Shown in pieces: positions 1 to 14,293 of a DNA stretch of 18,488 bases. Both the position numbers and the translations under genes were made by a program. The notes below the pieces were generated by a model. It did not search any database, was not told the DNA's origin, and saw nothing but the letters and a program-made list of their open reading frames with translations. Source of the DNA: a virus; UHGV virus genome UHGV-1333851; one strand, written 5' to 3'. The first letter of the stretch is position 1; each line of letters begins with the position of its first letter.

Positions 1-550
1 AACAACCAGTGCGTGGGTATATGCAAACAGGTTTTCTATTAATAGTGGTTCAACCTCATGGATTGATATGCGAAACCAAAATGTCATTTTTGGTAAAAAC
101 GCGGTATCAACAAGTTCCGCCCAAGCATTATTAAGACAAGACCATGCTGACAGAAAGTTCTTTATTGGTGGTCTTGGTAATAGCCAATTCGGCTTTTACA
201 TGATTAACAACTCAAGAACCGCAAATGGAACAGATGGTCAAGCATTCCTTGATAGCAGTGGTAACTTCCAGTGTGGTGGGCAAATAGTTCCCGCCAATTA
301 CAGTAATTTTGATTCCAGATATGCACTGAGAACATCTTACGTTTCCAGCGTAAGGATGGGGTCCGTTGCCAGTTATAGCCCACCAAACAACGAAACCTCC
401 TGGACTAAGAACCTTGGTAGCGGACTGGTTATGACAGGGATTATTGTTCAGGAAACAGGAAAAGCTTCTGCCGATAACATCGGTGGTATTTATTATCGGC
501 CAGTTCAATATTGTATCAACGGTACCTGGTATACAGCAGCATCAGTATAA
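1..550 (+). CDS. Tail fibre protein, C-terminal receptor-binding part (5' end outside window; fibre module A)
   Basis: Reading frame open from position 2 to TAA at 548-550 with no stop, so the gene continues upstream. The C-terminus (NYSNFDSRYAL...RPVQYCINGTWYTAASV) is paralogous to the C-terminus of the minus-strand fibre gene at 1684-2781. Followed 14 nt later by a tail fibre assembly gene with a strong SD. Confidence 0.8.
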   Translation, partial: TTSAWVYANRFSINSGSTSWIDMRNQNVIFGKNAVSTSSAQALLRQDHADRKFFIGGLGNSQFGFYMINNSRTANGTDGQAFLDSSGNFQCGGQIVPANYSNFDSRYALRTSYVSSVRMGSVASYSPPNNETSWTKNLGSGLVMTGIIVQETGKASADNIGGIYYRPVQYCINGTWYTAASV

Positions 551-564
551 AAAGGAGGCAGTAT

Positions 565-1080
565 ATGAATAATTTTAAAAACTTCACTTCCTACACGCCG
601 GGAGAAGATAAAAAAGAGCTTATTGATGCTGGAGTTTTATTCCTTCAGGATGAAAACGGTAATGACTGGTATGAATGTCAGAAGTTGTTTTCAGAATCTA
701 CAAGAATAGTTGCATATGATAGTAACGATATAGTTGTCAGCATTACTGATGACGTTTCTACCCTTTGGCCTATAGGATTGTCTGTAGCTGAAGTAGGAAG
801 TTTACCTGAAGATGTAGATATCAACGGTAATTGGGTGTTTAGAAACAACTCAGTTGTTAAACGCATATATTCTGATACAGAATTACAACAGCAAGCTGAA
901 TCAAAAAAGGCAGCCTTGCTTTCACACGCCGAATCAGTAATCGCAACTCTTGAGCGGGCAGTTAAATTGAATATGGCAACTGATGAGGAACGAGAAAAAC
1001 TGGAAGCGTGGGAGCGTTATAGCGTGTTGGTTTATCGTGTAGATACAGCTAAACCAGAATGGCCTGAAGAACCGGAGTGA
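565..1080 (+). CDS. Tail fibre assembly protein (Tfa/U-like)
   Basis: ATG at 565 preceded by AAGGAGG; the ORF-track start at 511 lacks an RBS. The N-terminal ~95 aa are highly similar to the convergent ORF at 1120-1665 (MxNFKxFTSYTP.EDK.EL..AGV.FL.DENGNDWYECQK), as expected for phage Tfa/U proteins. Confidence 0.85.
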   Translation: MNNFKNFTSYTPGEDKKELIDAGVLFLQDENGNDWYECQKLFSESTRIVAYDSNDIVVSITDDVSTLWPIGLSVAEVGSLPEDVDINGNWVFRNNSVVKRIYSDTELQQQAESKKAALLSHAESVIATLERAVKLNMATDEEREKLEAWERYSVLVYRVDTAKPEWPEEPE

Positions 1081-1085
1081 AGTAA

Positions 1086-1112
1086 AGGCCCGATTTATCG
1101 GGCCTATTTCAC
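1086..1112. terminator. Hairpin between convergent tfa genes, putative bidirectional terminator
   Basis: GGCCCGA-TTTA-TCGGGCC stem-loop followed by a T-rich tract (TATTTCACTTT), lying between the convergent 3' ends at 1080 and 1120. Confidence 0.5.
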
Positions 1113-1119
1113 TTTCCTT

Positions 1120-1665
1120 TTAAACTGGCTCAGTAGGCCAGGCGATCGCATTGAAAGTGGCTTTATCTGTTATTGTGTTGAAATCTAATGCATTAACAGC
1201 ATCTATATAGTCCAGCCAGGCGTCAAGAGCTGACTGTTCATCTTCAGATAATATTCTGCCGCGTAGTAATTTTGTCTGGCTAATGACGAGCTGTTGACGT
1301 GCGCTGTTAAGTCGCTCAGTGCGTCTTGATTCCGCCATGTTTTTTAACTCATCTGCGGTTCTTACTCTTTCAACCACATTTTCTCCGTCAAATATCCAGT
1401 TCCCATCAATATCTACTCCATCAGGCAGAGTTTCTATTTCTGCTACAGATGCCCCCACAGGCCAGAGTGTTGAAACATCGTTTGAAATACTCACGACGAT
1501 ATTATCGCTGTCATAAACTATCTTTATCGTATTCTCATGAAAAAATTTCTGACATTCATACCAGTCATTACCGTTTTCATCACGTAAAAATACAACTCCA
1601 GCTTCAACAAGCTCTGACTTATCTTCATCTGGGGTGTAGGATGTGAACTTTTTAAAATTAATCAT
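1120..1665 (-). CDS. Tail fibre assembly protein (Tfa-prime/U-prime-like)
   Basis: Paralog of 565-1080. Start placed at the ATG at 1665 (MINFKKF...), which has GGAG 7 nt upstream; the ORF-track start at 1677 has no RBS. The C-terminal half differs from the plus-strand copy. Confidence 0.85.
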   Translation of the reverse strand: MINFKKFTSYTPDEDKSELVEAGVVFLRDENGNDWYECQKFFHENTIKIVYDSDNIVVSISNDVSTLWPVGASVAEIETLPDGVDIDGNWIFDGENVVERVRTADELKNMAESRRTERLNSARQQLVISQTKLLRGRILSEDEQSALDAWLDYIDAVNALDFNTITDKATFNAIAWPTEPV

Positions 1666-1683
1666 TGTTTGCTCCATTAATAA

Positions 1684-2781
1684 TCATGCTGTGGCTGCTG
1701 TATACCAAGTGCCATTAATGCAATACTGTAAAGGCCTCAATCTTGCTGGGTCGTCACCATCAACTTCACCAATAATCCCAAGCCCTGTAATGACATAGCC
1801 AGCAGTTTCAAACATCGTGCCTTTCTGCATGGTATGAGTTTTATATGCCCCAAGTCTGACGCTGGTCACACAAGCCGTCTTTAATGCGTAACGAGAGTCA
1901 AAATTACTATAATTAGAGGGGGACACCTGACCATTTACAGCAAATGTTATGCTGTTATCAGTATTTCTCTGACTATAAAAATGCCATCCTGAATCATCAC
2001 CTAATTCAGCTACAACAGGACGAGTAGAAGCACCCCATAAATTAAATGTTACGTTCTTTGTGGATGTGTTAGAACTTGATAGTGAAAAAGTTTTACTATC
2101 TCCGGCCAGCAATTTTTTTAAAGAAAAAGCCGCATCATTCTGAAAGCGGAATACTCGCTGACCATTAGCGTAAACATCAAGAATGCCATCACCATTCTGT
2201 TTAAAACCAGTATCATTATCGCCAAGGACGATAGAGTTACCACCAAGAGCATTTGCAGTACCCAGACCAACAGAACCATTAACAGTTAAACCATTACCGA
2301 TTGAAACAGCACCATTGGCGTTGTTAATGGTAAGCGGCCTTAAACTATTCCATGTTCCCAGGCTGTCGCCCGAATTGGTCAACATGAAGTATGTGCTTGA
2401 ACCATCGTTTCGGATAAAGAATCCATAGTCACCCTGTACGATGCGGAAGCCATTTCCTGACTTGGAGACAATCTCACCATCAACCGTTAAACCGCCGGTA
2501 AGAGTTCCTCCGGTTATTGGCAATGCATCAATATCTTGAGGCGTGAGGTTAATGTCTTTTGAACCATCAAACGAAACGGAATTAATCTTTCTCGCGGTTT
2601 TCAGCTTTGTAGCCGTTGAGGCATTGCCGGACAGCTCACCAGAAATGCCACCAACAACTGTTAGATCACCAGTTATTGTGCCGCCTGAACTTTCCAGTTT
2701 TTTAGCAACATCACTCTTAATAGAGTCGATTTCTTTTTTCAGATTAGTTATATCTGCTGGTATCGTTGTCACTGTTGCCAT
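1684..2781 (-). CDS. Tail fibre protein, alternative receptor-binding module B, with its own start codon
   Basis: 365 aa. Contains a phage tail fibre repeat-like motif (NASTATKLKTARKINSVSFDGSKDINLT) and Gly-rich fibre sequence; the C-terminal ~80 aa are paralogous to module A (…RPLQYCINGTWYTAATA). ATG at 2781 has AAGGA 9 nt upstream. Confidence 0.8.
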   Translation of the reverse strand: MATVTTIPADITNLKKEIDSIKSDVAKKLESSGGTITGDLTVVGGISGELSGNASTATKLKTARKINSVSFDGSKDINLTPQDIDALPITGGTLTGGLTVDGEIVSKSGNGFRIVQGDYGFFIRNDGSSTYFMLTNSGDSLGTWNSLRPLTINNANGAVSIGNGLTVNGSVGLGTANALGGNSIVLGDNDTGFKQNGDGILDVYANGQRVFRFQNDAAFSLKKLLAGDSKTFSLSSSNTSTKNVTFNLWGASTRPVVAELGDDSGWHFYSQRNTDNSITFAVNGQVSPSNYSNFDSRYALKTACVTSVRLGAYKTHTMQKGTMFETAGYVITGLGIIGEVDGDDPARLRPLQYCINGTWYTAATA

Positions 2782-2790
2782 ATTAATTCC

Positions 2791-3069
2791 TTACGCCCAT
2801 TCCCGCAGCGGTTGTTCTAATTGAACTTCAAAACCATCAAACATTTGTTGTTTCAAACTGTTGTTTAAAATACGAACATTAACGAAGAAGCCATCATTTT
2901 TAATCACTGTTGGTTCTTCGTTCTCGCCGTTTGGTATTTCGGTATATGTAATACCTACAACATCAAGAAGGATGTTGTTTTGCAGTTCTTCATTATCGTG
3001 CCAGGATATACTCTCTAAAAAAGAGTCGTATTCTTCCCTGTCTCTGAATTTCAACGTAATATCTTTCAT
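2791..3069 (-). CDS. Small protein translationally coupled to the upstream fibre gene; putative fibre chaperone/assembly factor
   Basis: 92 aa. Its ATG overlaps the stop of the 3069-4568 fibre gene (TAATG); its stop lies 9 nt before the start of the next fibre gene. The chaperone role is inferred from position only. Confidence 0.4.
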   Translation of the reverse strand: MKDITLKFRDREEYDSFLESISWHDNEELQNNILLDVVGITYTEIPNGENEEPTVIKNDGFFVNVRILNNSLKQQMFDGFEVQLEQPLREWA

Positions 3070-4568
3070 TAAATAACCTCAGCCATTTGTTGGTCTGTTA
3101 ATGCTTTATGCCATATTCTGAAATTCCTGATATGACCAAATAAATGACGTAACCCTGCTGTAGTCTGGCCTCCAATACGGATGGTTGCAGAGTTCTGAAT
3201 ATAGGACCACGTAGTCTTTTTTTCGCTGGATATGCGCCCGTTACTTACTGAGCACGTAGACTGATCTGATTTTACACGCATCCCCATAACCATTTTTTCA
3301 AGCGATGCGTTTTCGTTTACCCGTCTGTTAGCTCCTCCAATATCGCAATAAGGAAATCCGTCTGGCCCATCTGCCGAAGATCCGAACCCAAGAATAATAG
3401 CCGCTCCGGTTTGATGACCGCTGGTATCAAAAACACGTGGCGCTGCATTTGGCGTTTTATACCAGTTCTTATGTACCTCACAAAGAACCGTAAAAGGAAG
3501 ATTATAAAGATTATTATTAATTGGAACTGTAACTATATCGCTTGCGCGGGTAGCCGCCGTCGTTCCTGAGATAATAAAAGATGATGCACAAGAACCATCC
3601 TCAACTTGAGGGGTAGACAGATAAATATAGTCTCCAGATACGGTTGCTCCGCCCTGCTTAGGAGAATACTGTATCTGAGATCCTATTTTTAACTCATCAT
3701 CAATTGCCTGGATTGTTGCCTCTGCAAAAATCCATCCAGTAGCTTCGTCCTTTCTGACTCTCGCTGTAATCCTTGATGCCGCGCCACCTGTCATATTAAT
3801 TTCAAGCGTTTGTGTATCAATATATGCATCACCAAGAAAAGTTGTTGCACTACCGTCATATTTATCAAAGCGGATACGCAACCTTACCTGTCGTTCTGTT
3901 TTAAAACGACATGAGGTTGTCACGTACTTGTTATCGCCTGAAACATCAACTGACTTTGTAGCAGCAATTGATGCCATATTAATGGCTGATGTTTGCCCAA
4001 TCAGAGAATCGTTACAGACAAACTTTCCATAGGTAAAACCAAAACTATCCGTCCCGGTTTCGGGAACATCCATATTTGACGATCGCCCCCAACTGGCAGG
4101 GTTTTCCGAATTGAGCATGTAGTTTGTTCGTTGTCCCTCAATAAGCAGGCCATCACGTTCAAATCGTGGCTCGTCAATGGCAGCCTCTGTCAGCACACCA
4201 GATTTATTTATATAGGTTGCTTTCGATGCGCGTTTAAACTTAACAACCTTGTCGCCAGGCATTGTTATTTCGTCGTCGCCAATAACAATCTTTTTATATG
4301 ATGGAGAAAAGCCCGCAATCATATCCAGTGAATCATTAAACGGTATCCACACATCTGGCAGCGGTTGAATAATCTTCCTGGCATCCTCCAGTGACAATGC
4401 TTCGACATCCGAGGCTGTTAAAGAAATATCTGCCGAACCGTCAAATGAAACGTTGTTAATCTTCCGCGCTGTTTTCAATTTCGTCGCGGTGTCGGCATTC
4501 CCTGTCAGCGCCCCGGTGATCCCGCCGTTGAAAGTCTGGCGTGCACTCCATGTGTTAGCCGTGCTCAA
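3069..4568 (-). CDS. Tail fibre variable segment C with a C-terminal LamG/concanavalin-like domain; probably expressed only as a fusion after inversion
   Basis: 499 aa from a TTG (ORF-track start) that has no SD. The frame stays open upstream through the crossover site to a stop at 4647-4649. Contains a tail fibre repeat (NADTATKLKTARKINNVSFDGSADISLT). The C-terminus (…LFGHIRNFRIWHKALTDQQMAEVI) resembles the terminal strand motif of LamG-like jelly-roll lectin domains. Confidence 0.7.
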   Translation of the reverse strand: MSTANTWSARQTFNGGITGALTGNADTATKLKTARKINNVSFDGSADISLTASDVEALSLEDARKIIQPLPDVWIPFNDSLDMIAGFSPSYKKIVIGDDEITMPGDKVVKFKRASKATYINKSGVLTEAAIDEPRFERDGLLIEGQRTNYMLNSENPASWGRSSNMDVPETGTDSFGFTYGKFVCNDSLIGQTSAINMASIAATKSVDVSGDNKYVTTSCRFKTERQVRLRIRFDKYDGSATTFLGDAYIDTQTLEINMTGGAASRITARVRKDEATGWIFAEATIQAIDDELKIGSQIQYSPKQGGATVSGDYIYLSTPQVEDGSCASSFIISGTTAATRASDIVTVPINNNLYNLPFTVLCEVHKNWYKTPNAAPRVFDTSGHQTGAAIILGFGSSADGPDGFPYCDIGGANRRVNENASLEKMVMGMRVKSDQSTCSVSNGRISSEKKTTWSYIQNSATIRIGGQTTAGLRHLFGHIRNFRIWHKALTDQQMAEVI

Positions 4569-4598
4569 CAGGGGGATCTTTTCACCGCTGGTACCGAG

Positions 4599-4624
4599 TT
4601 CTCTTAAACCAAGGTTTAGGATTG
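4599..4624. other. Site-specific inversion crossover site (hix/gix/cix-like)
   Basis: TTCTCTTAAACC-AA-GGTTTAGGATTG: two 12-bp imperfect inverted half-sites around a 2-bp core, matching the Hin/Gin/Cin family architecture (TTnTCnnAAACC NN GGTTTnnGAnAA). It is the only canonical AAACC-NN-GGTTT found in the window. Confidence 0.75.
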
Positions 4625-5176
4625 AAATGATGACGCCGGAAACTTCTTATAAAGCGTGGAAACAGCCACATCATAGATGATTGCAACCTGCTTACGGGGG
4701 ATACCCTTCTCCAGCAATCGCCGCATTTGCTGCCATGTTTCTTCTTGGTATTTAGGCCGACGCCCACCTATACGACCTTCTGCGCGAGCTGCATCAAGTC
4801 CAGCGCGTGTACGTTCAACGATAAGCTCACGTTCCATTTCTGCCAGCGCACCCATTACGTGAAAGAAAAAGCGCCCCATTGGTGTACTGGTGTCGATGGA
4901 GTCAGTGAGACTCCGGAAGTTAATGCCTCTGTCACGCAGCTCTTCCACCAGCACAACTAAGTGACGCATGCTGCGCCCAAGACGGTCTAACTTCCATACG
5001 ACCAGGGTATCACCTCTGGAAAGCATACGGAGTACCTTTTTTAACCCAGGGCGCTCAGCCTTTTTGCCGCTCGCCTTGTCCTCAAAAATTAGCTCACATC
5101 CTGCGCTTTCAAGAGCGTTTCGTTGTAAAGCAGTGTTTTGTTCATTTGTTGATACACGTACATAGCCTATTAGCAT
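4616..5176 (-). CDS. cin: DNA invertase, small serine recombinase of the Hin/Gin/Cin/Pin family
   Basis: 186 aa. MLIGYVRVSTNEQ…GDTLVVWKLDRLGRS…GRFFFHVMGALAEMERELIVERT…STLYKKFP matches the resolvase/invertase catalytic domain (catalytic Ser in VRVST) and the C-terminal HTH. ATG at 5176. The stop codon lies inside the crossover site. Confidence 0.95.
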   Translation of the reverse strand: MLIGYVRVSTNEQNTALQRNALESAGCELIFEDKASGKKAERPGLKKVLRMLSRGDTLVVWKLDRLGRSMRHLVVLVEELRDRGINFRSLTDSIDTSTPMGRFFFHVMGALAEMERELIVERTRAGLDAARAEGRIGGRRPKYQEETWQQMRRLLEKGIPRKQVAIIYDVAVSTLYKKFPASSFQS

Positions 5177-5302
5177 ATTTTCTGCTCACTATCGTTATTT
5201 ATAGCAAGCTGCGGATTTTAATTAACAAAACCAGTGTGTGTGGAAATCACAAAGTACATACCGTTTCCCAATGATGTTTATTTAACCATTAAGGAAATAG
5301 TT

Positions 5303-5584
5303 ATGTTTGATCTAAAAATCATTTTCATATCCATCTTTGGCGGAGTGCATTCGTTTCTGAATGGGGTTCGTGAAAAACGTTACGAAGCATCATGCAGGCA
5401 ATTGCTGGCCGAGTGTCTTGCTGCCGTACTTGCAGGCTTTATAGGCATGTGTTTCGCGGAATATAAGGGTATGGATGAAAGTCTTCAGAATTGCGTGACT
5501 CTTATTTGCAGCATCAATAACAGGCTCATTCTTGAAAGGTTACAAAGGCTTATCGATTCGTACCTCAATAGAAATGCCTCTTAA
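5303..5584 (+). CDS. Small membrane protein, holin-like (possibly LydC-like)
   Basis: Start placed at the ATG at 5303 (AAGGAAA 7 nt upstream) rather than the ORF-track start at 5234. Two hydrophobic segments (IIFISIFGGVHSFL, LAAVLAGFIGMCFA). First gene downstream of the invertase on the opposite strand. Confidence 0.4.
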   Translation: MFDLKIIFISIFGGVHSFLNGVREKRYEASCRQLLAECLAAVLAGFIGMCFAEYKGMDESLQNCVTLICSINNRLILERLQRLIDSYLNRNAS

Positions 5585-7011: not shown

Positions 7012-8931
7012 ATGGAACAGTTCAATATCAATAAAGGGGTGACGATCAAGCCTGGGCTTGACGTGCTTCCCCCGCCAGTGACTGATGATGAATATCGCGC
7101 ATTAATGGCCGGTGAGGACCGCTATCTGATGACGGAATCCAACACCCTGGAGGAAATCGAGGCTACGTTCTTCTATGACACGCCGATCCACTGGTGTGCT
7201 ACGGATTTACTGGAGGCGATTAGTTCTACTCGTTTGCAGTTACACCGGACCATGCAGGCATTTGTCCGGGCATTGAACCAGAAGCTGAATGGTACCGGAA
7301 TCTCTGCGGGGAGTGATAAAACGGGGGATGTGGCCCAGAGCGGCGCGCGCGCGATCGGCGGCGCTGAAATTGGTCGGGCACGTAACGTTAACGGGCTGCC
7401 GGTCCTGCCAGCCATTATTCCGCTCAGTGATGGTCAGACTATCAGCATTTTGTTTCATAGCCCGACAGCGGAAAACCGGATCACCAATAGCGATACGCTG
7501 GTTGCTTTCCAGTTCTTACTGAATAAAAAAGACGTTACTCACACCGTTGCTCCGATGAGTGGACGTGATATGACGCTGGCGCAGGTCACCATGAAACTTG
7601 CCAACCTTGCAGAGAAAAACTCGGCAAAATTCCAGCGTGCGCAGAAGAAGAAAAAAGCCCTGGTTGATGAAATAACCCAACTACAGGCTGACAGTGACCA
7701 GAAAGAGGATGCCATGAGCGACCTCGCGGATCAGGTGGCAGCGGTAGAAGGCCAGAAGGCAGATCTGGAGCAGAAAATTAACGCGGTTGCTTCGGAAGCG
7801 GATTCTCTTTATCAAGAAAATGAGCGTTTGCAGGCGGAGATTGATCAGCTCAATCGCACTGGTGGGCGCGATACCATTGCTCCAGCGGGGATGACTGGTG
7901 GGCACTCTCGCGCGCTGACGGATCGCCTTGCCAGTATCAAAAATCGTATGCATATGGACGGGGAAGCGACGCTCAGTAATGGTGCATCAATGAAGCAATT
8001 CATTGGGGATGGCGAAGGGTATATCCAGTTAACCGATCCGGATGGCAGCGTATACATGATCAAGGCTAAATCCATACAGGGTGTGGACATGGCAGAAGCG
8101 ATCGGCAAGCTGTTTAAAGCCTATAAAGCGGGTAATGTATCGGAATATCTGGTCCAACCAGAAGAACATAAACCGGAAAACGTCGAACCTGAACCAGCGG
8201 AGGATACCGGTAGCTCTTCGCCTGAACCAGAAGTCTCTGTAGGTGCATATCGATATGCCCTGCAAATGCGTCCGGCGGCCCCTGGCGCAATACCTGAAGG
8301 TAACAAAGCGATTCTGCCGCGCCCTGATGAAGGTGACCCGTATTATGAATATGCACGCTACGGCATTGCTACTTACGATACCCCGCTTTCTGATCAGCAA
8401 ATGAGTGAGTACGACCTGAAGTTATTGCCTCGCGAGGATTCTTTCGACTTCCTGGCGAAGACACTTACTAATGGTCCGTTTGGCAAATATGCACAAAAAG
8501 CTCTGGAGCTGGCCACCAGCTCACCAGACGAGTTCCGCGTAATGCTGAAAACTCAGTTTCAAAAAACTTTCCCCAATATTGCGTTTCCTGGGGGCACTGG
8601 CACCGAGAAAATGGTGCAGAGCATGATCAATGCATTGCAGGCCGAAGTCGGTGAGATTACTCAGCCAGAACCGGCCCCGGCACAGCCTGATGAAACGGTT
8701 AGCGAAGCAGATGCAGAGGCTAATAAAGCCATTGAATATCTCAATAACGTGATGGATATGCAAAGCACTGACATGGCGGAGATCCGTAACGCCCGGGGTA
8801 ATGTCCGGGAAGCTATTGCAGCCCTTCAGGCTGCCGGGCGTTTTGAGGAAAACGAAGAGCTGGTTAATGGCGCAGCTCGCCACCTGGCTGATCTGCTGGT
8901 AGCAATCCAGAAAGCGGGGGTAGCGGCATGA
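7012..8931 (+). CDS. darA: DarA-like head-internal antirestriction / head morphogenesis protein
   Basis: 639 aa with an internal coiled-coil segment (QLQADSDQKEDAMSDLADQVAAVEGQKADLEQKINAV…). Paralogous to the preceding Hdf-like gene. Size and operon position match P1 DarA by recollection; not verified. Confidence 0.55.
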   Translation: MEQFNINKGVTIKPGLDVLPPPVTDDEYRALMAGEDRYLMTESNTLEEIEATFFYDTPIHWCATDLLEAISSTRLQLHRTMQAFVRALNQKLNGTGISAGSDKTGDVAQSGARAIGGAEIGRARNVNGLPVLPAIIPLSDGQTISILFHSPTAENRITNSDTLVAFQFLLNKKDVTHTVAPMSGRDMTLAQVTMKLANLAEKNSAKFQRAQKKKKALVDEITQLQADSDQKEDAMSDLADQVAAVEGQKADLEQKINAVASEADSLYQENERLQAEIDQLNRTGGRDTIAPAGMTGGHSRALTDRLASIKNRMHMDGEATLSNGASMKQFIGDGEGYIQLTDPDGSVYMIKAKSIQGVDMAEAIGKLFKAYKAGNVSEYLVQPEEHKPENVEPEPAEDTGSSSPEPEVSVGAYRYALQMRPAAPGAIPEGNKAILPRPDEGDPYYEYARYGIATYDTPLSDQQMSEYDLKLLPREDSFDFLAKTLTNGPFGKYAQKALELATSSPDEFRVMLKTQFQKTFPNIAFPGGTGTEKMVQSMINALQAEVGEITQPEPAPAQPDETVSEADAEANKAIEYLNNVMDMQSTDMAEIRNARGNVREAIAALQAAGRFEENEELVNGAARHLADLLVAIQKAGVAA

Positions 8932-9305: not shown

Positions 9306-12293
9306 ATGAGCTTAAGCGATCAGGTGGTAATGGCCACCAGCATAGAAACGCTGATCGAGCTGCTAAAGAACCTGCCCGATTATGGGCGGGTTTCGTATGT
9401 GGTGACAGCGAAGGGAGACGAGGTAAAAACAGCGTTTGATATCGTCGATGCCTCAGCTCTTTTGGTATCCAATACTCTGGATGGGAAAATTAATCCTGAC
9501 TATCCCCAGGAACTTCAACCGCGCGACCGGACCCGCGCATCCAGCCTTCTTCAGGTTAACCAGATATCCAAAGATTTGCGGCCTGCTCAGCTTACCGACT
9601 CCGGTTTATCCAGCCATGGCGCGCCGATAATTGGTGAGGACAATGCCGTTGAGTCAGGTAATGGGCGGACCATGGGGATCATTAAAGCCTATCAGGACGG
9701 TAATGCGGATCGGTATCGGGAGTACCTGATTGAACATGCGACCGAATTCGGCATACGGCCTGAAAAGGTTGAATCAATGACGGCTCCGGTACTGGTGCGC
9801 CGCCGGTTAACGAAGGTTGACCGTGTTCAGTTTGCCAAGGACTCAAATATTTCTGATCTCCAGGAAATGGCAGCCAGTGAAAAGGCTTTTGTTGATGCCG
9901 ACAGCATAACTCCGGCGATGATGGCGCTTTTTAACCCGTCAGAAAGCGGAGATCTGCTTAGCCGCAGTAATGACGCGTTTATTCGCGGATTTATGACGCA
10001 AGTTGGTGCCACACAGGCGGCTGGCCTTGTAACTGAAGATGGGCGACCAACACGGCAACTTGTAGACCGTATACAAAACGCGATCTTTGCCAAGGCATAT
10101 AAGGATGCGCGCCTGGTAAGGATGGTTGCAGAAGAACCTGATCCGGATATGCGTAATGTTCTGACGGCGCTTAATGCGGCAGCCAATGATTTTGTCCAGA
10201 TGCAGGCTTTATCAGGAGAAGCGCACAAGCAGGCTGTGACAACTATTGTTGATGGCATTGAGACAGCGGATAGCCTCGATAAAAAGGCGCTGGCAGCATT
10301 GAAAGATGCGGTAGACCTGGTAAGGCAATCGAAGGAGTCAGGCCAGCATATTACCGATGTTATTGCTCAGGGGGATATGTTCAGCGAAACGGCCCCGGAA
10401 GTGAAAGCACTCGCGTTGTTCATCGTCGCGAATAACCGTAGCGCGAAGCGTATGGCCACCGCCTTTAAGTTGATGGCTCAACGTATCAATGATGAGTTAC
10501 AGCACCAGGGCCAGGCGCTGGGGGATATGTTTGGCGGCGGCGATGTGTCGTTACAGGATATCCTTCGCCAGGTGTCTCAGGAACTGGAAAACGAAGGCAT
10601 GCAAGGGATATCCGGCGGTCTTTTCGAGTCCGTTTCCGGCGGTAGTTACAACGGTGTTGCTCCGTATACCAGTTTGCTATTACATCGGGCATCCGGCATC
10701 AAAGACATTATTCATCTGATCAGGCTGCTTTCCCGCACAGATCCCCAGGATGAACAGCTTGTACAAGTGCTTGCGCATTTTGTTCGAATGCCTGTTGCCG
10801 ACGTGAAAAAATGGTGCCGATTATTCGGTATCAGCAATTCGTTACTTCGCGGCTTGTTAAATCACGCATCCTCCCTTGGGCGCGATGGCTTTGACGAGAT
10901 AGCGCAGGCGATAAAAAACGGAGATATGCCACCAGCTATTGACTGGTTTTCCATTCGCCCAACCAGGGTGAAAGCATTCCTTAGCGCGGCGCATTCGGCA
11001 TCACCATTGGCAGAAATGGTTCAGAGGTTGTCGCTCATATTCACAGACCATAGCGCGTTGGGTGATCTGACTCTGGACGAGATGAAAGAAGCCTCCATTC
11101 AGTGGGCCGATCAACAAAATGAGGTTAACTCAGACTTCTTGCCAGCATTCAGGAAGGCCGTTAGTAAAGTGGATGATGCCCGTGGAATTCTGAAGGCATT
11201 TAAGGCATTGCAAAGTCGGGTTAATAAACATGTCGGTGATATCGATGGGGTAACGGCGGAAGGCAGGGATATCCTTAAAGAGCACGGCATAACGCCAGAG
11301 TTTATTGATGAGATCAGGACGGATATGCAGCGTGAGGTCGTATCGTCCCTGCAAATCGTAGCCAGAGCGTTGGCGGATGCTAATCCGAAGAGTGCGGCCA
11401 TTGTTAACCGGGTTATTGGTGATATTGAAGCATCGGAGGGCATGGGGGCGCTGAAACTCTTCCTTTCGCGAGCGTTTAATCCTAACGGCAATATTCTCCC
11501 CAGCATTATTGGTGAGGCTAAAAAGCATGTCAGTGAAGAAGAACTTGAGCAGCTTAACCAGCTACTCAATCGATTTTCATATATCCCGCAGAAACGCTGG
11601 CAAATGAATCAGCGTAGTATGGATTCGGTCTACGAGAAAGTGTTATCTGCCATGAACAGTGCGATCGCCAACTCATCCGTATCAGAAGAAAAAGCTCTTG
11701 AGTGGGCCGACTCTTTTATCACGGAAGAAGTGGAAGAAGCCCGCGCTGGACAGAATGGTGGAATAGACCTGCGCAAGGAACTTGCTGATATTTATCGCCT
11801 GACCGGCGGGAAAATATCAACCTTATCAAGGGTAATTCACCACAAGGGTAGGGCGTATGCAAATCTTAATGGTGTTGTTGCTGTCGATTTGCACGATGAA
11901 AATGCAAATGCACTGTGGCACGAGCTGGGTCATCATCTTGAGTACAGTAACCCGGGTTTGTTAGAGAAAGCCAGGTCATTCCTGAAGGCCAATGTTGAAG
12001 GGGATAAGCCATCTTTCGTTAATATTGGTGGGCGTGGCAAGCCTGAATGGTGCTTCAGATCTCGATTGAGTGATATTTATATGGCGAAGGTATACCCGCC
12101 TGTCTCAGTGAGTAATTCTGGTAAATTTCGACACAAATCTCCGACAATTTCCAAAACGTCAGCAACGGAAGTATTCTCTATGGCTCTTCAGTTGTATCAT
12201 GACAAAGAGGCCGCTGCCGCATCACTGATGAATGGTGACGGATTGCTGGAACTGTTATTAGGTGTGGCAAAGGAGCTAAATAATGCAGATTAA
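9306..12293 (+). CDS. ddrB: DdrB-like large virion-associated multidomain protein with a zincin HExxH motif
   Basis: 995 aa. HExxH motif near the C-terminus (ALWHELGHHLEYSNPG). N-terminal region has a possible ParB/Srx-like signature (ESGNGRTMG), unverified. Last large gene of the Dar-like operon. Confidence 0.5.
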   Translation: MSLSDQVVMATSIETLIELLKNLPDYGRVSYVVTAKGDEVKTAFDIVDASALLVSNTLDGKINPDYPQELQPRDRTRASSLLQVNQISKDLRPAQLTDSGLSSHGAPIIGEDNAVESGNGRTMGIIKAYQDGNADRYREYLIEHATEFGIRPEKVESMTAPVLVRRRLTKVDRVQFAKDSNISDLQEMAASEKAFVDADSITPAMMALFNPSESGDLLSRSNDAFIRGFMTQVGATQAAGLVTEDGRPTRQLVDRIQNAIFAKAYKDARLVRMVAEEPDPDMRNVLTALNAAANDFVQMQALSGEAHKQAVTTIVDGIETADSLDKKALAALKDAVDLVRQSKESGQHITDVIAQGDMFSETAPEVKALALFIVANNRSAKRMATAFKLMAQRINDELQHQGQALGDMFGGGDVSLQDILRQVSQELENEGMQGISGGLFESVSGGSYNGVAPYTSLLLHRASGIKDIIHLIRLLSRTDPQDEQLVQVLAHFVRMPVADVKKWCRLFGISNSLLRGLLNHASSLGRDGFDEIAQAIKNGDMPPAIDWFSIRPTRVKAFLSAAHSASPLAEMVQRLSLIFTDHSALGDLTLDEMKEASIQWADQQNEVNSDFLPAFRKAVSKVDDARGILKAFKALQSRVNKHVGDIDGVTAEGRDILKEHGITPEFIDEIRTDMQREVVSSLQIVARALADANPKSAAIVNRVIGDIEASEGMGALKLFLSRAFNPNGNILPSIIGEAKKHVSEEELEQLNQLLNRFSYIPQKRWQMNQRSMDSVYEKVLSAMNSAIANSSVSEEKALEWADSFITEEVEEARAGQNGGIDLRKELADIYRLTGGKISTLSRVIHHKGRAYANLNGVVAVDLHDENANALWHELGHHLEYSNPGLLEKARSFLKANVEGDKPSFVNIGGRGKPEWCFRSRLSDIYMAKVYPPVSVSNSGKFRHKSPTISKTSATEVFSMALQLYHDKEAAAASLMNGDGLLELLLGVAKELNNAD

Positions 12294-12596: not shown

Positions 12597-12628
12597 AAAT
12601 CCCGCCAATCGGCGGGATTTTTTTTAAT
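12597..12628. terminator. Rho-independent terminator, bidirectional between convergent operons
   Basis: AAATCCCGCC-AATC-GGCGGGATTT, a perfect 10-bp stem, followed by a T run. Sits between the plus-strand stop at 12594 and the minus-strand stop at 12624. Confidence 0.75.
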
Positions 12629-13412
12629 CGCTTTCCACTTCTTCCGTGGTGTTTTCTTGCAGTTCTGTTAATGCAGCACGACATAGGTTCCGGGCATTGG
12701 CTATAGCCACACTTTTGACTTCATCCGTCATCGTGCAGGTAATGTACTGATCGAGTTCTTCAGCGCGGATGATGCTTTTGCCAATCAGAAACTGTATTTG
12801 CCAGAGCAGATCGGCATCCATAATCAGAATTTCTGCCGGGCCTTCAGGGCCAGCCGGGAAGGAAACATAAGACTGTTTGCCCAGGCCGATAACTCGACAA
12901 CTTGCTTCAAGAATTGCGCGCTTGAGGTCTGACTTTGTAACGGAAACAGGTTGGTTTTCACCAGTGATTATGCCGTTGACATGGAAGTGGAAGGGCATGT
13001 AGCTTGAAATACGCTCTACTTTCCACACGCCAGCAAGCGATCCTTCATGCAGCACAATGGGGGTAACCGCGAGTTTCATCTCACCATATAACTGCTGGCA
13101 GATAGCTGGATTGCTGAATACATCCAAAGGTTCACACTCAAACAGCGGCGCAATCTGCATGAGGTCCATCATGGTCATACCAGGGGTACGAGCAGTAATG
13201 AATCTGCGCATGCCAGTATCCATTGTGCGCCAGATAGCTACACCATGCTTTTTGCTCACTTCTTCAGTAAAGCCAAGGTGGCACATGATGGTTTTTTCGA
13301 TAGCCAGATCAGAGATCGAAACCTTTTCGCCAGGCACACCATCATTATTGATGGTCACTTCGACACTCTGACCATTACGCAGGCGGTATTGAATTGCTTT
13401 AGTATTTTCCAC
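12624..13412 (-). CDS. Hypothetical protein, function unknown
   Basis: 262 aa. GTG start at 13412 with GGAGTG 8 nt upstream; start lies 7 nt after the stop of the preceding gene. No motif I can assign. Confidence 0.55.
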   Translation of the reverse strand: MENTKAIQYRLRNGQSVEVTINNDGVPGEKVSISDLAIEKTIMCHLGFTEEVSKKHGVAIWRTMDTGMRRFITARTPGMTMMDLMQIAPLFECEPLDVFSNPAICQQLYGEMKLAVTPIVLHEGSLAGVWKVERISSYMPFHFHVNGIITGENQPVSVTKSDLKRAILEASCRVIGLGKQSYVSFPAGPEGPAEILIMDADLLWQIQFLIGKSIIRAEELDQYITCTMTDEVKSVAIANARNLCRAALTELQENTTEEVESD

Positions 13413-13418
13413 GTTAAA

Positions 13419-14096
13419 TCACTCCACTACAAACCAGTCACATGCCAGTAAGTCGCCTACAGAAGGAACCCACGGAACAACTACACCTTGTGCATTTTTT
13501 AAGGCGAAATAAGCACCATACGGAACGAGGTCGCCGGGGAAATATCCCTTAATGGCTTCCATTCGTGCCGGGTACTGTCCTTCAGGAACCAGCCAGCAGA
13601 ATTGGTTTTCGCCGTTCCACCCGCGTCGAGCAACTTTCTTGCCATCCTTCAGCCACATCAGCGCGTCAGAAAAGTCGGCTGCTTCAAGGTCGATTTCTTC
13701 TTGTAGAGTAGCGATACCGCCAGCAGAAATAGTTACGTCCCTGGCTGTAATGAATGTCACCCCATTGTGACCTTCAATGCTGAGCAATGCCCCATTTTCG
13801 AAGAAGTCGTTAGTCCGACTAAAGCCTTCTTCAAATGTTTTTTCTGGTGAATAGGACAGAGATCCGTCCTCATAAGCGACCAGATATCCGCCAATTTCTG
13901 GTCGGTGTTTTTGCAAAAACATTTTATCAACATGGACTTTTACCCCTTCTGGCTCAACGACTTCGATGTTGCAAAGAAGGACCACATCCATTAGGGCGAT
14001 AATTTCGATATCTTTGATTTTTGAGGCACGAACTGTTTTATGGCTTTTGTATTTTGGAAGTGCCGTCAAAAGCTCTTTCGTTGTCATGTTATTCAT
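13419..14096 (-). CDS. Two-domain protein with a C-terminal DUF2829 (Tad2-like) domain
   Basis: Start placed at the ATG at 14096 (AGAGGAAA 5 nt upstream), not the ORF-track GTG at 14264, whose extension is R/K-rich and lacks an RBS. The C-terminal ~85 aa (FSDALMWLKDGKKVARRGWNGENQFCWLVP…PWVPSVGDLLACDWFVVE) match the DUF2829 signature as I remember it. Confidence 0.6.
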   Translation of the reverse strand: MNNMTTKELLTALPKYKSHKTVRASKIKDIEIIALMDVVLLCNIEVVEPEGVKVHVDKMFLQKHRPEIGGYLVAYEDGSLSYSPEKTFEEGFSRTNDFFENGALLSIEGHNGVTFITARDVTISAGGIATLQEEIDLEAADFSDALMWLKDGKKVARRGWNGENQFCWLVPEGQYPARMEAIKGYFPGDLVPYGAYFALKNAQGVVVPWVPSVGDLLACDWFVVE

Positions 14097-14293
14097 AGTC
14101 TTTCCTCTGCTTAAAACCTGATGTATTGCGCCTTCAGGTGGGGCAGGATTGTTTTCCCACCAGCGAAAGCAATATCTCGGGGTGTTCTTTTCGTGAAAAG
14201 CGCGTGCCATTGCCAACTTTGGCGTTTGTTTGCGAGTTCGTGCTTTTGTCGGCGTCTGGACCACCGCTTTTCTTTCAGTCGTTTTTTACACAT

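Follow-up and report, generated by a model that had tools for sequence, protein, structure and literature searches.

A P1-type Cin-invertible tail-fibre segment with putative lateral-fibre cassette cargo in the virus genome UHGV-1333851

The sequence considered here is a stretch of 18,488 nucleotides from the virus genome UHGV-1333851 (18.5 kb; hereafter the window, meaning the whole of the DNA analysed), the left end of which carries two convergent groups of tail-fibre and fibre-assembly genes beside a DNA invertase gene. By sequence likeness the window is a piece of a P1-like phage-plasmid: its positions 1-5400 match phage P1, phage P7 and hundreds of P1-type Escherichia and Salmonella plasmids in BLAST comparisons. 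We are confident that the region studied corresponds to the right-hand three quarters of a Cin/cix-invertible C segment, together with cin.

Genes and recombination sites of the segment

The invertase gene cin (4616-5176, minus strand) adjoins the segment and encodes a serine DNA invertase with Pfam matches to Resolvase (4.6e-51) and to HTH_7 (1.9e-18), the latter in the C-terminal part. The protein contains the catalytic-serine motif YVRVST and is identical to P1 Cin at 186 of 186 residues. The 26-bp Cin crossover site cixL (TTCTCTTAAACCAAGGTTTAGGATTG; 4599-4624) is the same as the cixL annotated for P1 (record AF234172), has its central AA at 4611-4612 and overlaps the last cin codons, as it does in P1. 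A scan of the window at up to three mismatches finds it a single time, where none would be expected (200 shuffles), and no second cix-like site was found in the window at up to six mismatches in 26. The recombinational enhancer lies inside the 5' part of cin (5087-5158), at the same position within the gene as in P1, and agrees with the P1 sequence (AF234172) at 71 of 72 nt; its dependence on Fis would carry over by likeness. The cin promoter region, corresponding to P1cin/P2cin of P1, was placed at 5177-5306 (minus strand) by alignment to the annotated P1 region, with about six differences in 130 nt in a global alignment. Agreement at this level indicates that the machinery is phage P1's own Cin/cix system, already known as a recombination system. 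A preliminary description of this DNA had proposed a layout of the Mu G and P1 C type, with a Cin-type invertase beside convergent fibre cassettes and a single canonical crossover site, and had suggested an alignment to P1; every one of these elements was recovered where it had been placed, and the identity of Cin and cixL to those of P1, along with the near identity of the enhancer, bears out the proposed layout.

On the plus strand, the arm that we call A (1-550) is the 3' end of the variable part (Sv) of tail-fibre gene S, based on tail-fibre PHROG matches. Its frame runs without a stop from base 2 as far as the TAA at 548-550 and represents the last 182 codons of the gene, which is cut by the window edge. 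It is followed by the tail-fibre assembly chaperone gene for A (565-1080, plus strand), which is of the U/Tfa type (Pfam Caudo_TAP, 1.8e-29; phrog_136, 3e-68). Between the convergent arms a terminator scan identified a G+C-rich hairpin (1086-1105) of eight pairs, six of them G-C. The predicted fold of this hairpin has an energy of -25 kcal/mol (z = -4.8), which none of 200 shuffles equalled, and it is likely to serve as a terminator for both arms.

The minus strand carries four genes. Nearest the hairpin is the assembly chaperone for fibre B (1120-1677; U'/Tfa' type; Pfam Caudo_TAP, 5.4e-21; phrog_136, 4e-56), the annotated start of which lies 12 nt further in among relatives (181 aa). The two chaperone genes form a 276-nt inverted repeat (74%). 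Next is the gene for fibre B (1684-2781, minus strand), a free-standing protein of 365 aa with its own ribosome-binding site (RBS, AAGGAA) and ATG, a match to Pfam Gp34_trimer (5.7e-31) and homology to the Mu tail fibre S (PDB 5yvq, 4.6e-37). The first ~25 aa of B form a conserved peptide, residues ~50-175 a Gp34_trimer/Mu S-like shaft, and the remainder a P1/Mu-type tip terminating in QYCINGTWYTAA, which is common to A.

Upstream of B on the same strand is orf92 (2791-3069), encoding a small conserved protein that belongs to phrog_1361, a family of unknown function (1.8e-35), and coupled translationally to C through a TAATG overlap. No Pfam or NCBIfam match was found for it, a sequence search of the PDB returned a chance-level match only (E = 0.16), and a homologue search returned 14 proteins, none with a name, one of them from Salmonella phage L6jm. 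A confident AlphaFold2 model built from the alignment (predicted local distance difference test score, pLDDT, 84) has a small alpha/beta fold, for which Foldseek returned only weak and non-specific ribosomal S10/PII-like matches in the PDB (E >= 0.016, template-modelling score <= 0.45) and uncharacterised phage proteins in BFVD. Because of the tight coupling to C, our guess is that orf92 might encode a chaperone or adaptor.

Fibre part C (3069-4611, minus strand, from crossover to stop) is the equivalent of Sv' and matches a tail protein family, phrog_1419, at 5.8e-236. Its 514 codons are open from cix (ILNLGLRELGTSGEK...) to the stop, with no N-terminus of its own in the window's orientation. 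Other matches are to NCBIfam GTA_spike_fiber (1.4e-14), to a head spike fibre (PDB 6tb9, 3.8e-6) and, weakly, to Laminin_G_3 at the C-terminus. The tandem of two fibre genes that the preliminary description had reported on this arm consists of the free-standing fibre B and the fibre part C. Since the terminator scan found no terminator between cin and C, one might speculate that read-through from the cin promoter would express orf92, B and Tfa' even in the "off" state.

The left end of the segment and its orientation in relatives

Exact matching of the first 51 nt of the window against viral and genome contig collections gave no match. The left flank was recovered through an exact protein look-up with the plus-arm chaperone, which led to contig L015 (6,129 bp, assembly GCA_006675745.1), 100.000% identical to window 1-4582. 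L015 extends 1,547 bp to the left of the window as a single fibre frame, open from its base 1 and beginning with TSGEKIPLLSTANTW... (TSGEKIPLL...); on the other arm, this peptide is encoded immediately inside cixL. Over its first 135 nt the contig is an inverted repeat (97%) of window 4458-4592, which belongs to the right-hand terminal inverted repeat of the segment (4458-4611), encoding the peptide common to both fibre variants. In the 97%-identical plasmid L001 the terminal inverted repeat extends over 197 nt (90%); the repeats of P1 are usually quoted as roughly 0.6 kb, versus 135-197 nt in the window's element and L001. When L015 is set in register with L001, its start falls 19 nt inside the cixR crossover. 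The preliminary description had placed the partner site upstream of the window, and L001 does have a P1-identical cixR about 1.5 kb to the left of the window start.

From L015, the complete segment of the window's element is estimated at ~6,177 bp; its plus arm, measured from the crossover to the stop of the chaperone gene, accounts for 2,646 bp and its minus arm for 3,492 bp. The arms had been described as very unequal, about 1.1 kb against 3.5 kb, which is correct for the visible sequence; however, as the plus arm measures 2,646 bp in L015, this asymmetry is mostly an effect of truncation by the window start. The asymmetry that remains is real and is one of gene content, with two genes on the plus arm and four on the minus arm.

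Residues ~296-417 of the L015 fibre frame (TPRAIGTINSTTMSFSGGAGWFRLATV..., to the left of the window) could not be aligned to the Sv of L001, and both ends of the frame align at 87-93%; the central mismatch has the appearance of another mosaic exchange within the plus arm. Contigs L015 to L017 break near cix, but we did not use these breaks as evidence of mixed orientation since inverted repeats alone can break short-read assemblies. A further contig, L014 (ENA ERZ807525 NODE_35), is 100% identical to window 312-5400; its positions 1-49 are an Illumina TruSeq adapter (...GTGACTGGAGTTCAGACGTGTGCTCTTCCGATCT) left untrimmed at the contig end of the public assembly.

The arrangement is rare, with about seven P1-like plasmids having it among 5,426 complete E. 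coli genomes, and the A tip of the window has at most 93.5% identity to any of those records. Six P1-like plasmids carrying the C-orf92-B arm were fetched (L001, L002 and L007-L010). Each of the six has exactly two cix sites, in inverted orientation, which are identified by their outer half-sites as cixL (adjoining cin) and cixR (inside S), and cixR is P1-identical in all of them. No third cix-like site was found in any of these relatives at up to two mismatches in 16. The length from crossover to crossover ranges from 5,961 to 7,435 bp (the longest includes IS2), versus 4,256 bp in P1. The six are evenly divided in orientation: in three of them C adjoins cin, as in the window, and in the other three (L002, L007 and L008) C is fused to Sc, where a single fibre gene of ~966 aa is annotated (967 aa in L002).

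Plasmids L001 and L002 are 99.93-99.96% identical over 4.5 kb on either side of the segment and 99.5% identical within it, yet the segment is inverted in one relative to the other. Their outer cix half-sites are swapped exactly as predicted by conservative recombination at the core. In addition, the frame across cix reads ...QY followed by LGLRELGTSGEK for both arms, and the Sc-A fusion of L001 and the Sc-C fusion of L002 are each annotated as a single gene. Because these two near-identical plasmids differ essentially only in the orientation of the segment, they provide good natural evidence, from comparison of their sequences, that the segment flips in nature.

Two of the relatives depart from the common form. 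In L009 (NZ_CP195366.1, 3258-10103), each arm of a 6.8-kb segment has a C-like part, orf92 and a B-like gene; the cixL of this plasmid deviates at one position (AAGC for AAGG) and a frameshift is annotated in its cin-proximal C, and this may be a decaying or locked switch. L010 (NZ_AP045735.1) has IS2 inside C (10270-11498) in a segment that is otherwise 98.8% identical, and the C arm of this plasmid is therefore knocked out.

Three modules and the origin of the cassette

In L001 the A shaft pairs with the B shaft as a 261-nt inverted repeat (86%). Based on this shaft repeat, the chaperone repeat and the common tip QYCINGTWYTAA, we assign A-Tfa and B-Tfa' as the classical Sv/U and Sv'/U' pair of P1 and Mu. 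A separate unit, a lateral-tail-fibre cassette, is made up of C, orf92 and the first ~170 codons of B. Window 2275-4615 has 95-96% identity to a family of ~48-kb plasmids that are P2-like phage-plasmids, having baseplate J, I, V and D genes along with a tape-measure gene, and in which C ends the fibre gene. Outside this family, counterparts of the distal 430 aa of C are present in three phages, the lambdoid Tritos (93% identity) and the T1-like tunus (84%) and PeterMerian (62%).

The order of genes is common to the P2-like, T1-like and lambdoid backgrounds: a C-type fibre, a 92-93-aa open reading frame (ORF) joined by a TAATG-type overlap, and a gene starting MATVT.IP.DI..LK. Conservation across these backgrounds extends to the C-terminal ~35 aa of C, to orf92 (46-52% identical to its siphovirus counterparts) and to the N-terminal ~25 aa of the third protein (47-62%). 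The receptor-binding body of C varies freely, as does the distal part of the third protein. B follows this pattern, as its first ~25-35 aa are 47-62% identical to the third gene of Tritos, tunus and PeterMerian and its remainder 24-33%. Among the P1-like relatives, L008 has the cassette on the arm with the A-type tip. These alignments are most simply read as the entry of a mobile lateral-tail-fibre cassette into the P1 segment by recombination at the conserved ATKLKTAR... and Gp34_trimer motifs.

The preliminary description had presented the switch as having a three-module architecture. The three modules are real, but they are the classical pair plus an inserted cassette; with no more than two cix sites, the cassette does not make a third switchable arm. 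In the papers on P1-like phage-plasmids, cin-Sv'-U'-U-S is given as a variable region, and we found none dissecting the C-orf92-B arm (PMC6906374, PMC9603915), nor any paper on the module of C, orf92 and second fibre as such.

Members of the P2-like family with the C-orf92-B-Tfa cassette include L006 and L013 (NZ_CP173594.1, a 47.8-kb plasmid). L006 has a cixR-like site (TTCTCTTAAACCAAGGTACTGGATAA, 8322-8347) within its fibre gene, with one mismatch to P1 cixR, and no invertase gene was found near it in the ~17 kb examined; the site may be left over, in a now fixed state, from an ancestor that could invert. In Tritos, a PinR-type recombinase gene (L005 1485-2075) lies ~600 bp past the fibre module, and the 9 kb fetched had no match to the cix 16-mer at up to two mismatches.

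The predicted switch, its alternatives and related systems

Our overall explanation, in which we place high confidence, is that the segment is a two-state fibre switch of the P1 Cin/cix type with the cassette as cargo. Cin, aided by the enhancer within its own gene, would recombine cixL with an inverted cixR in gene S, expected ~1.57 kb to the left of the window, and thereby flip ~6.18 kb. In P1 a late promoter upstream of R drives the S operon, and only the arm joined to Sc gives a complete fibre. In the window's orientation Sc would be fused to A, producing an Sc-A fibre with TfaA co-transcribed from the upstream late S-operon promoter. In the inverted orientation Sc would be fused in frame to C, and the same transcript would carry orf92, B and Tfa', which would each be translated from a start of their own. 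Each lysogen population would then release two virion types with different receptor-binding proteins, one with the P1/Mu-type tip of A and the other with the lectin-like lateral-fibre tip of C, probably along with B as a second fibre of P1/Mu type. The sequences show directly the identity of the machinery, the continuity of the reading frame across cix, a topology with two sites and the existence of relatives in both orientations, and from these we infer that the switch is active in the window's own element.

Several points weigh against this explanation. Only one cix site lies within the window, and the partner cixR of the window's own element, expected to the left of L015 as TTATCCAATACCTTGGTTTAAGAGAACTCGG, falls beyond that contig, which ends 19 nt short of it. 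Both orientations are known across relatives and not from the reads of one population. Expression from the late S-operon promoter is borrowed from knowledge of P1, and membership of B or orf92 in the virion would follow by analogy only. Finally, the ratios of nonsynonymous to synonymous substitution rates (dN/dS) for B and orf92 are based on 3-15 substitutions, which are too few to decide.

Incorporation of B and orf92 into the virion may be proposed by analogy with siphoviruses, the lateral fibres of which can comprise two or more proteins (BASEL papers, PMC8594841). In the published model of the branched lateral fibres of T5-like phages and phiEco32, docking of the second fibre onto the first is ascribed to its short, conserved N-terminus (PMC4728585). 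Since the conserved N-terminal peptide of B (MATVTTIPADITNLKK), a candidate docking element, fits this branched-fibre pattern, inversion might toggle between a one-receptor virion and a two-receptor virion in which Sc-C forms the trunk, B is docked to it by this peptide and orf92 acts as adaptor or chaperone. We offer this proposal tentatively and consider it more doubtful than probable.

The alternative that survives best is that only A and C are toggled, with B, and perhaps Tfa' and orf92, being passengers left by insertion of the cassette into an older Sv'. Such an origin would suit both the occurrence of C-orf92 and the N-terminal part of B as a mobile cassette in many backgrounds and the C-terminal half of B, which is like resident P1-type tips and mosaic among relatives, as insertion into an existing Sv' would give; moreover, we know of no need of a C-type tip for a Tfa chaperone. 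However, all relatives examined have intact copies of B, orf92 and both chaperones, and the B frame is open from the same ATG in every relative (326-365 aa). Its frame, RBS and ATG are intact in seven of seven P1-like copies, in the P2-like plasmid and in the siphoviruses, despite the shuffled tips. The conservation of the N-terminal ~25 aa of B at 47-62%, where the rest is at most 33%, also argues against a passenger, as does the dN/dS of 0.28-0.37 in the N-terminal half of B, although the counts are small. Against the more diverged copies, the values for orf92 and the N-terminal half of B are 0.2-0.5 (6-15 substitutions); a comparison of C with L006 was out of register and was discarded. We therefore regard the passenger explanation as unlikely.

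In four relatives PGAP labels B as a pseudogene that is truncated at the N-terminus, an assignment that we rejected on account of the conserved RBS, ATG and open frame. The PGAP/RefSeq entries concerned are described as "incomplete; missing N-terminus" (L007 8393-9286, L008 6630-7547, L009 5339-6148 and L010 8326-9243). Alignment of these four shows the same orf92 stop, AAGGAA and ATG and an uninterrupted frame, indicating that the labels are annotation artefacts.

A frozen relic, in which the cixR of the window's element is gone or mutated and inversion no longer occurs, is very improbable. The site is present in neither the window nor L015, and decay does occur in this family, as shown by L009 with its cixL mismatch and frameshifted C; yet Cin, cixL and the enhancer of the window are intact and match P1, the left inverted repeat in L015 is intact to 19 nt from the crossover, and six of six relatives have a P1-identical cixR. 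A multiple inversion system of the p15B Min type, in which B would be a third switchable 3' end with a crossover site of its own, could draw on the three fibre-type coding parts of the segment and on the ATKLKTARKIN motif, which follows cix in A and C and is also found inside B, but it is ruled out for practical purposes by the restriction to two sites (no third at up to 6/26 mismatches in the window or 2/16 in relatives) and by the RBS and ATG from which B is read as a separate protein.

The system predicted here, a two-state Cin/cix switch with cassette cargo, is closest to the C segment of P1 and P7, which has the same Cin, cixL and enhancer position, the same order of lydC, cin, cixL, segment, cixR, Sc and R, and, in P1, alternative S 3' ends that each have their own chaperone. 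It differs from P1 in the length of the segment (4,256 bp in P1, ~6.18 kb here), in the cin-proximal arm (Sv' and U' in P1; C, orf92, B and Tfa' here) and in the fused tip, which is of Mu/P1 type in P1 and of siphovirus lateral-fibre type here. The Gin/gix system of Mu G has the same two-site inversion between S/U and S'/U', and B is a clear homologue of Mu S. The G segment is 3 kb long with one fibre and one chaperone per arm, and Mu differs in having neither a second free-standing fibre nor orf92. The Min region of p15B is also P1-related and has more than two fibre-coding modules in its invertible region; it contains six crossover sites and forms many isomers, whereas here there are two sites and two states.

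The branched or multi-protein fibres of siphoviruses (LtfA/LtfB of the T5-like DT57C and gp14/gp15 of phiEco32) share a short conserved N-terminus on a second fibre without its own virion-attachment domain, along with variable distal parts; LtfB and gp15 are likened to B by this pattern. The lateral-fibre loci of tunus, PeterMerian and Tritos have the same three-gene order of C-type fibre, 92-aa ORF and MATVT.IP.DI..LK gene. In contrast to the segment described here, the siphovirus loci are fixed, under no invertase control and associated with non-contractile tails, and here the conserved N-terminus of the third gene is joined to a Mu S-type shaft and a tip needing a Tfa chaperone.

The switch itself is textbook P1 biology and raises no new mechanistic question on recombination. 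What is new is the combination of cargo, a longer segment with a four-gene arm that includes a siphovirus-type tip and a second free-standing fibre, and the information it provides concerns the assembly of host-range cargo: T1-like, lambdoid, P2-like and P1-like elements share a circulating lateral-fibre cassette of three genes, which in P1-like phage-plasmids is found inside the Cin-invertible segment, sometimes on one arm, sometimes on the other and, in a single relative, on both. P1 serves as a delivery vehicle. Antibiotic-resistance genes are spread by P1-like phage-plasmids (PMC9600943). For predicting and engineering host range it is useful to know that, in one of the two states, some natural variants can display other receptor-binding proteins, possibly two at a time. 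If the toggling between single and branched fibres is true, it would place a branched fibre of siphovirus origin on a contractile-tail phage under invertase control, which would raise the interest of the system.

To the right of the switch the window continues with the P1 genes lydC, lydA, lydB, hdf, darA, ddrA, ddrB and hxr, followed by ssb, a lysozyme gene and ORFs with matches to tail-fibre and portal PHROG families, in the order of annotated relatives. Two minus-strand ORFs (12624-14264) occupy the locus of isaA-IS1-isaB in P1, one of 262 aa (phrog_2326) and the other of 281 aa with a C-terminal Tad2-like/DUF2829 domain (Pfam, 2.5e-22). As this region matches Salmonella phage SJ46 over its full length at 98% identity, versus coverage of only 58% by P1, the P1 copy is probably a version, disrupted by IS1, of a gene that is intact here and has a Thoeris-anti-defence-like domain.

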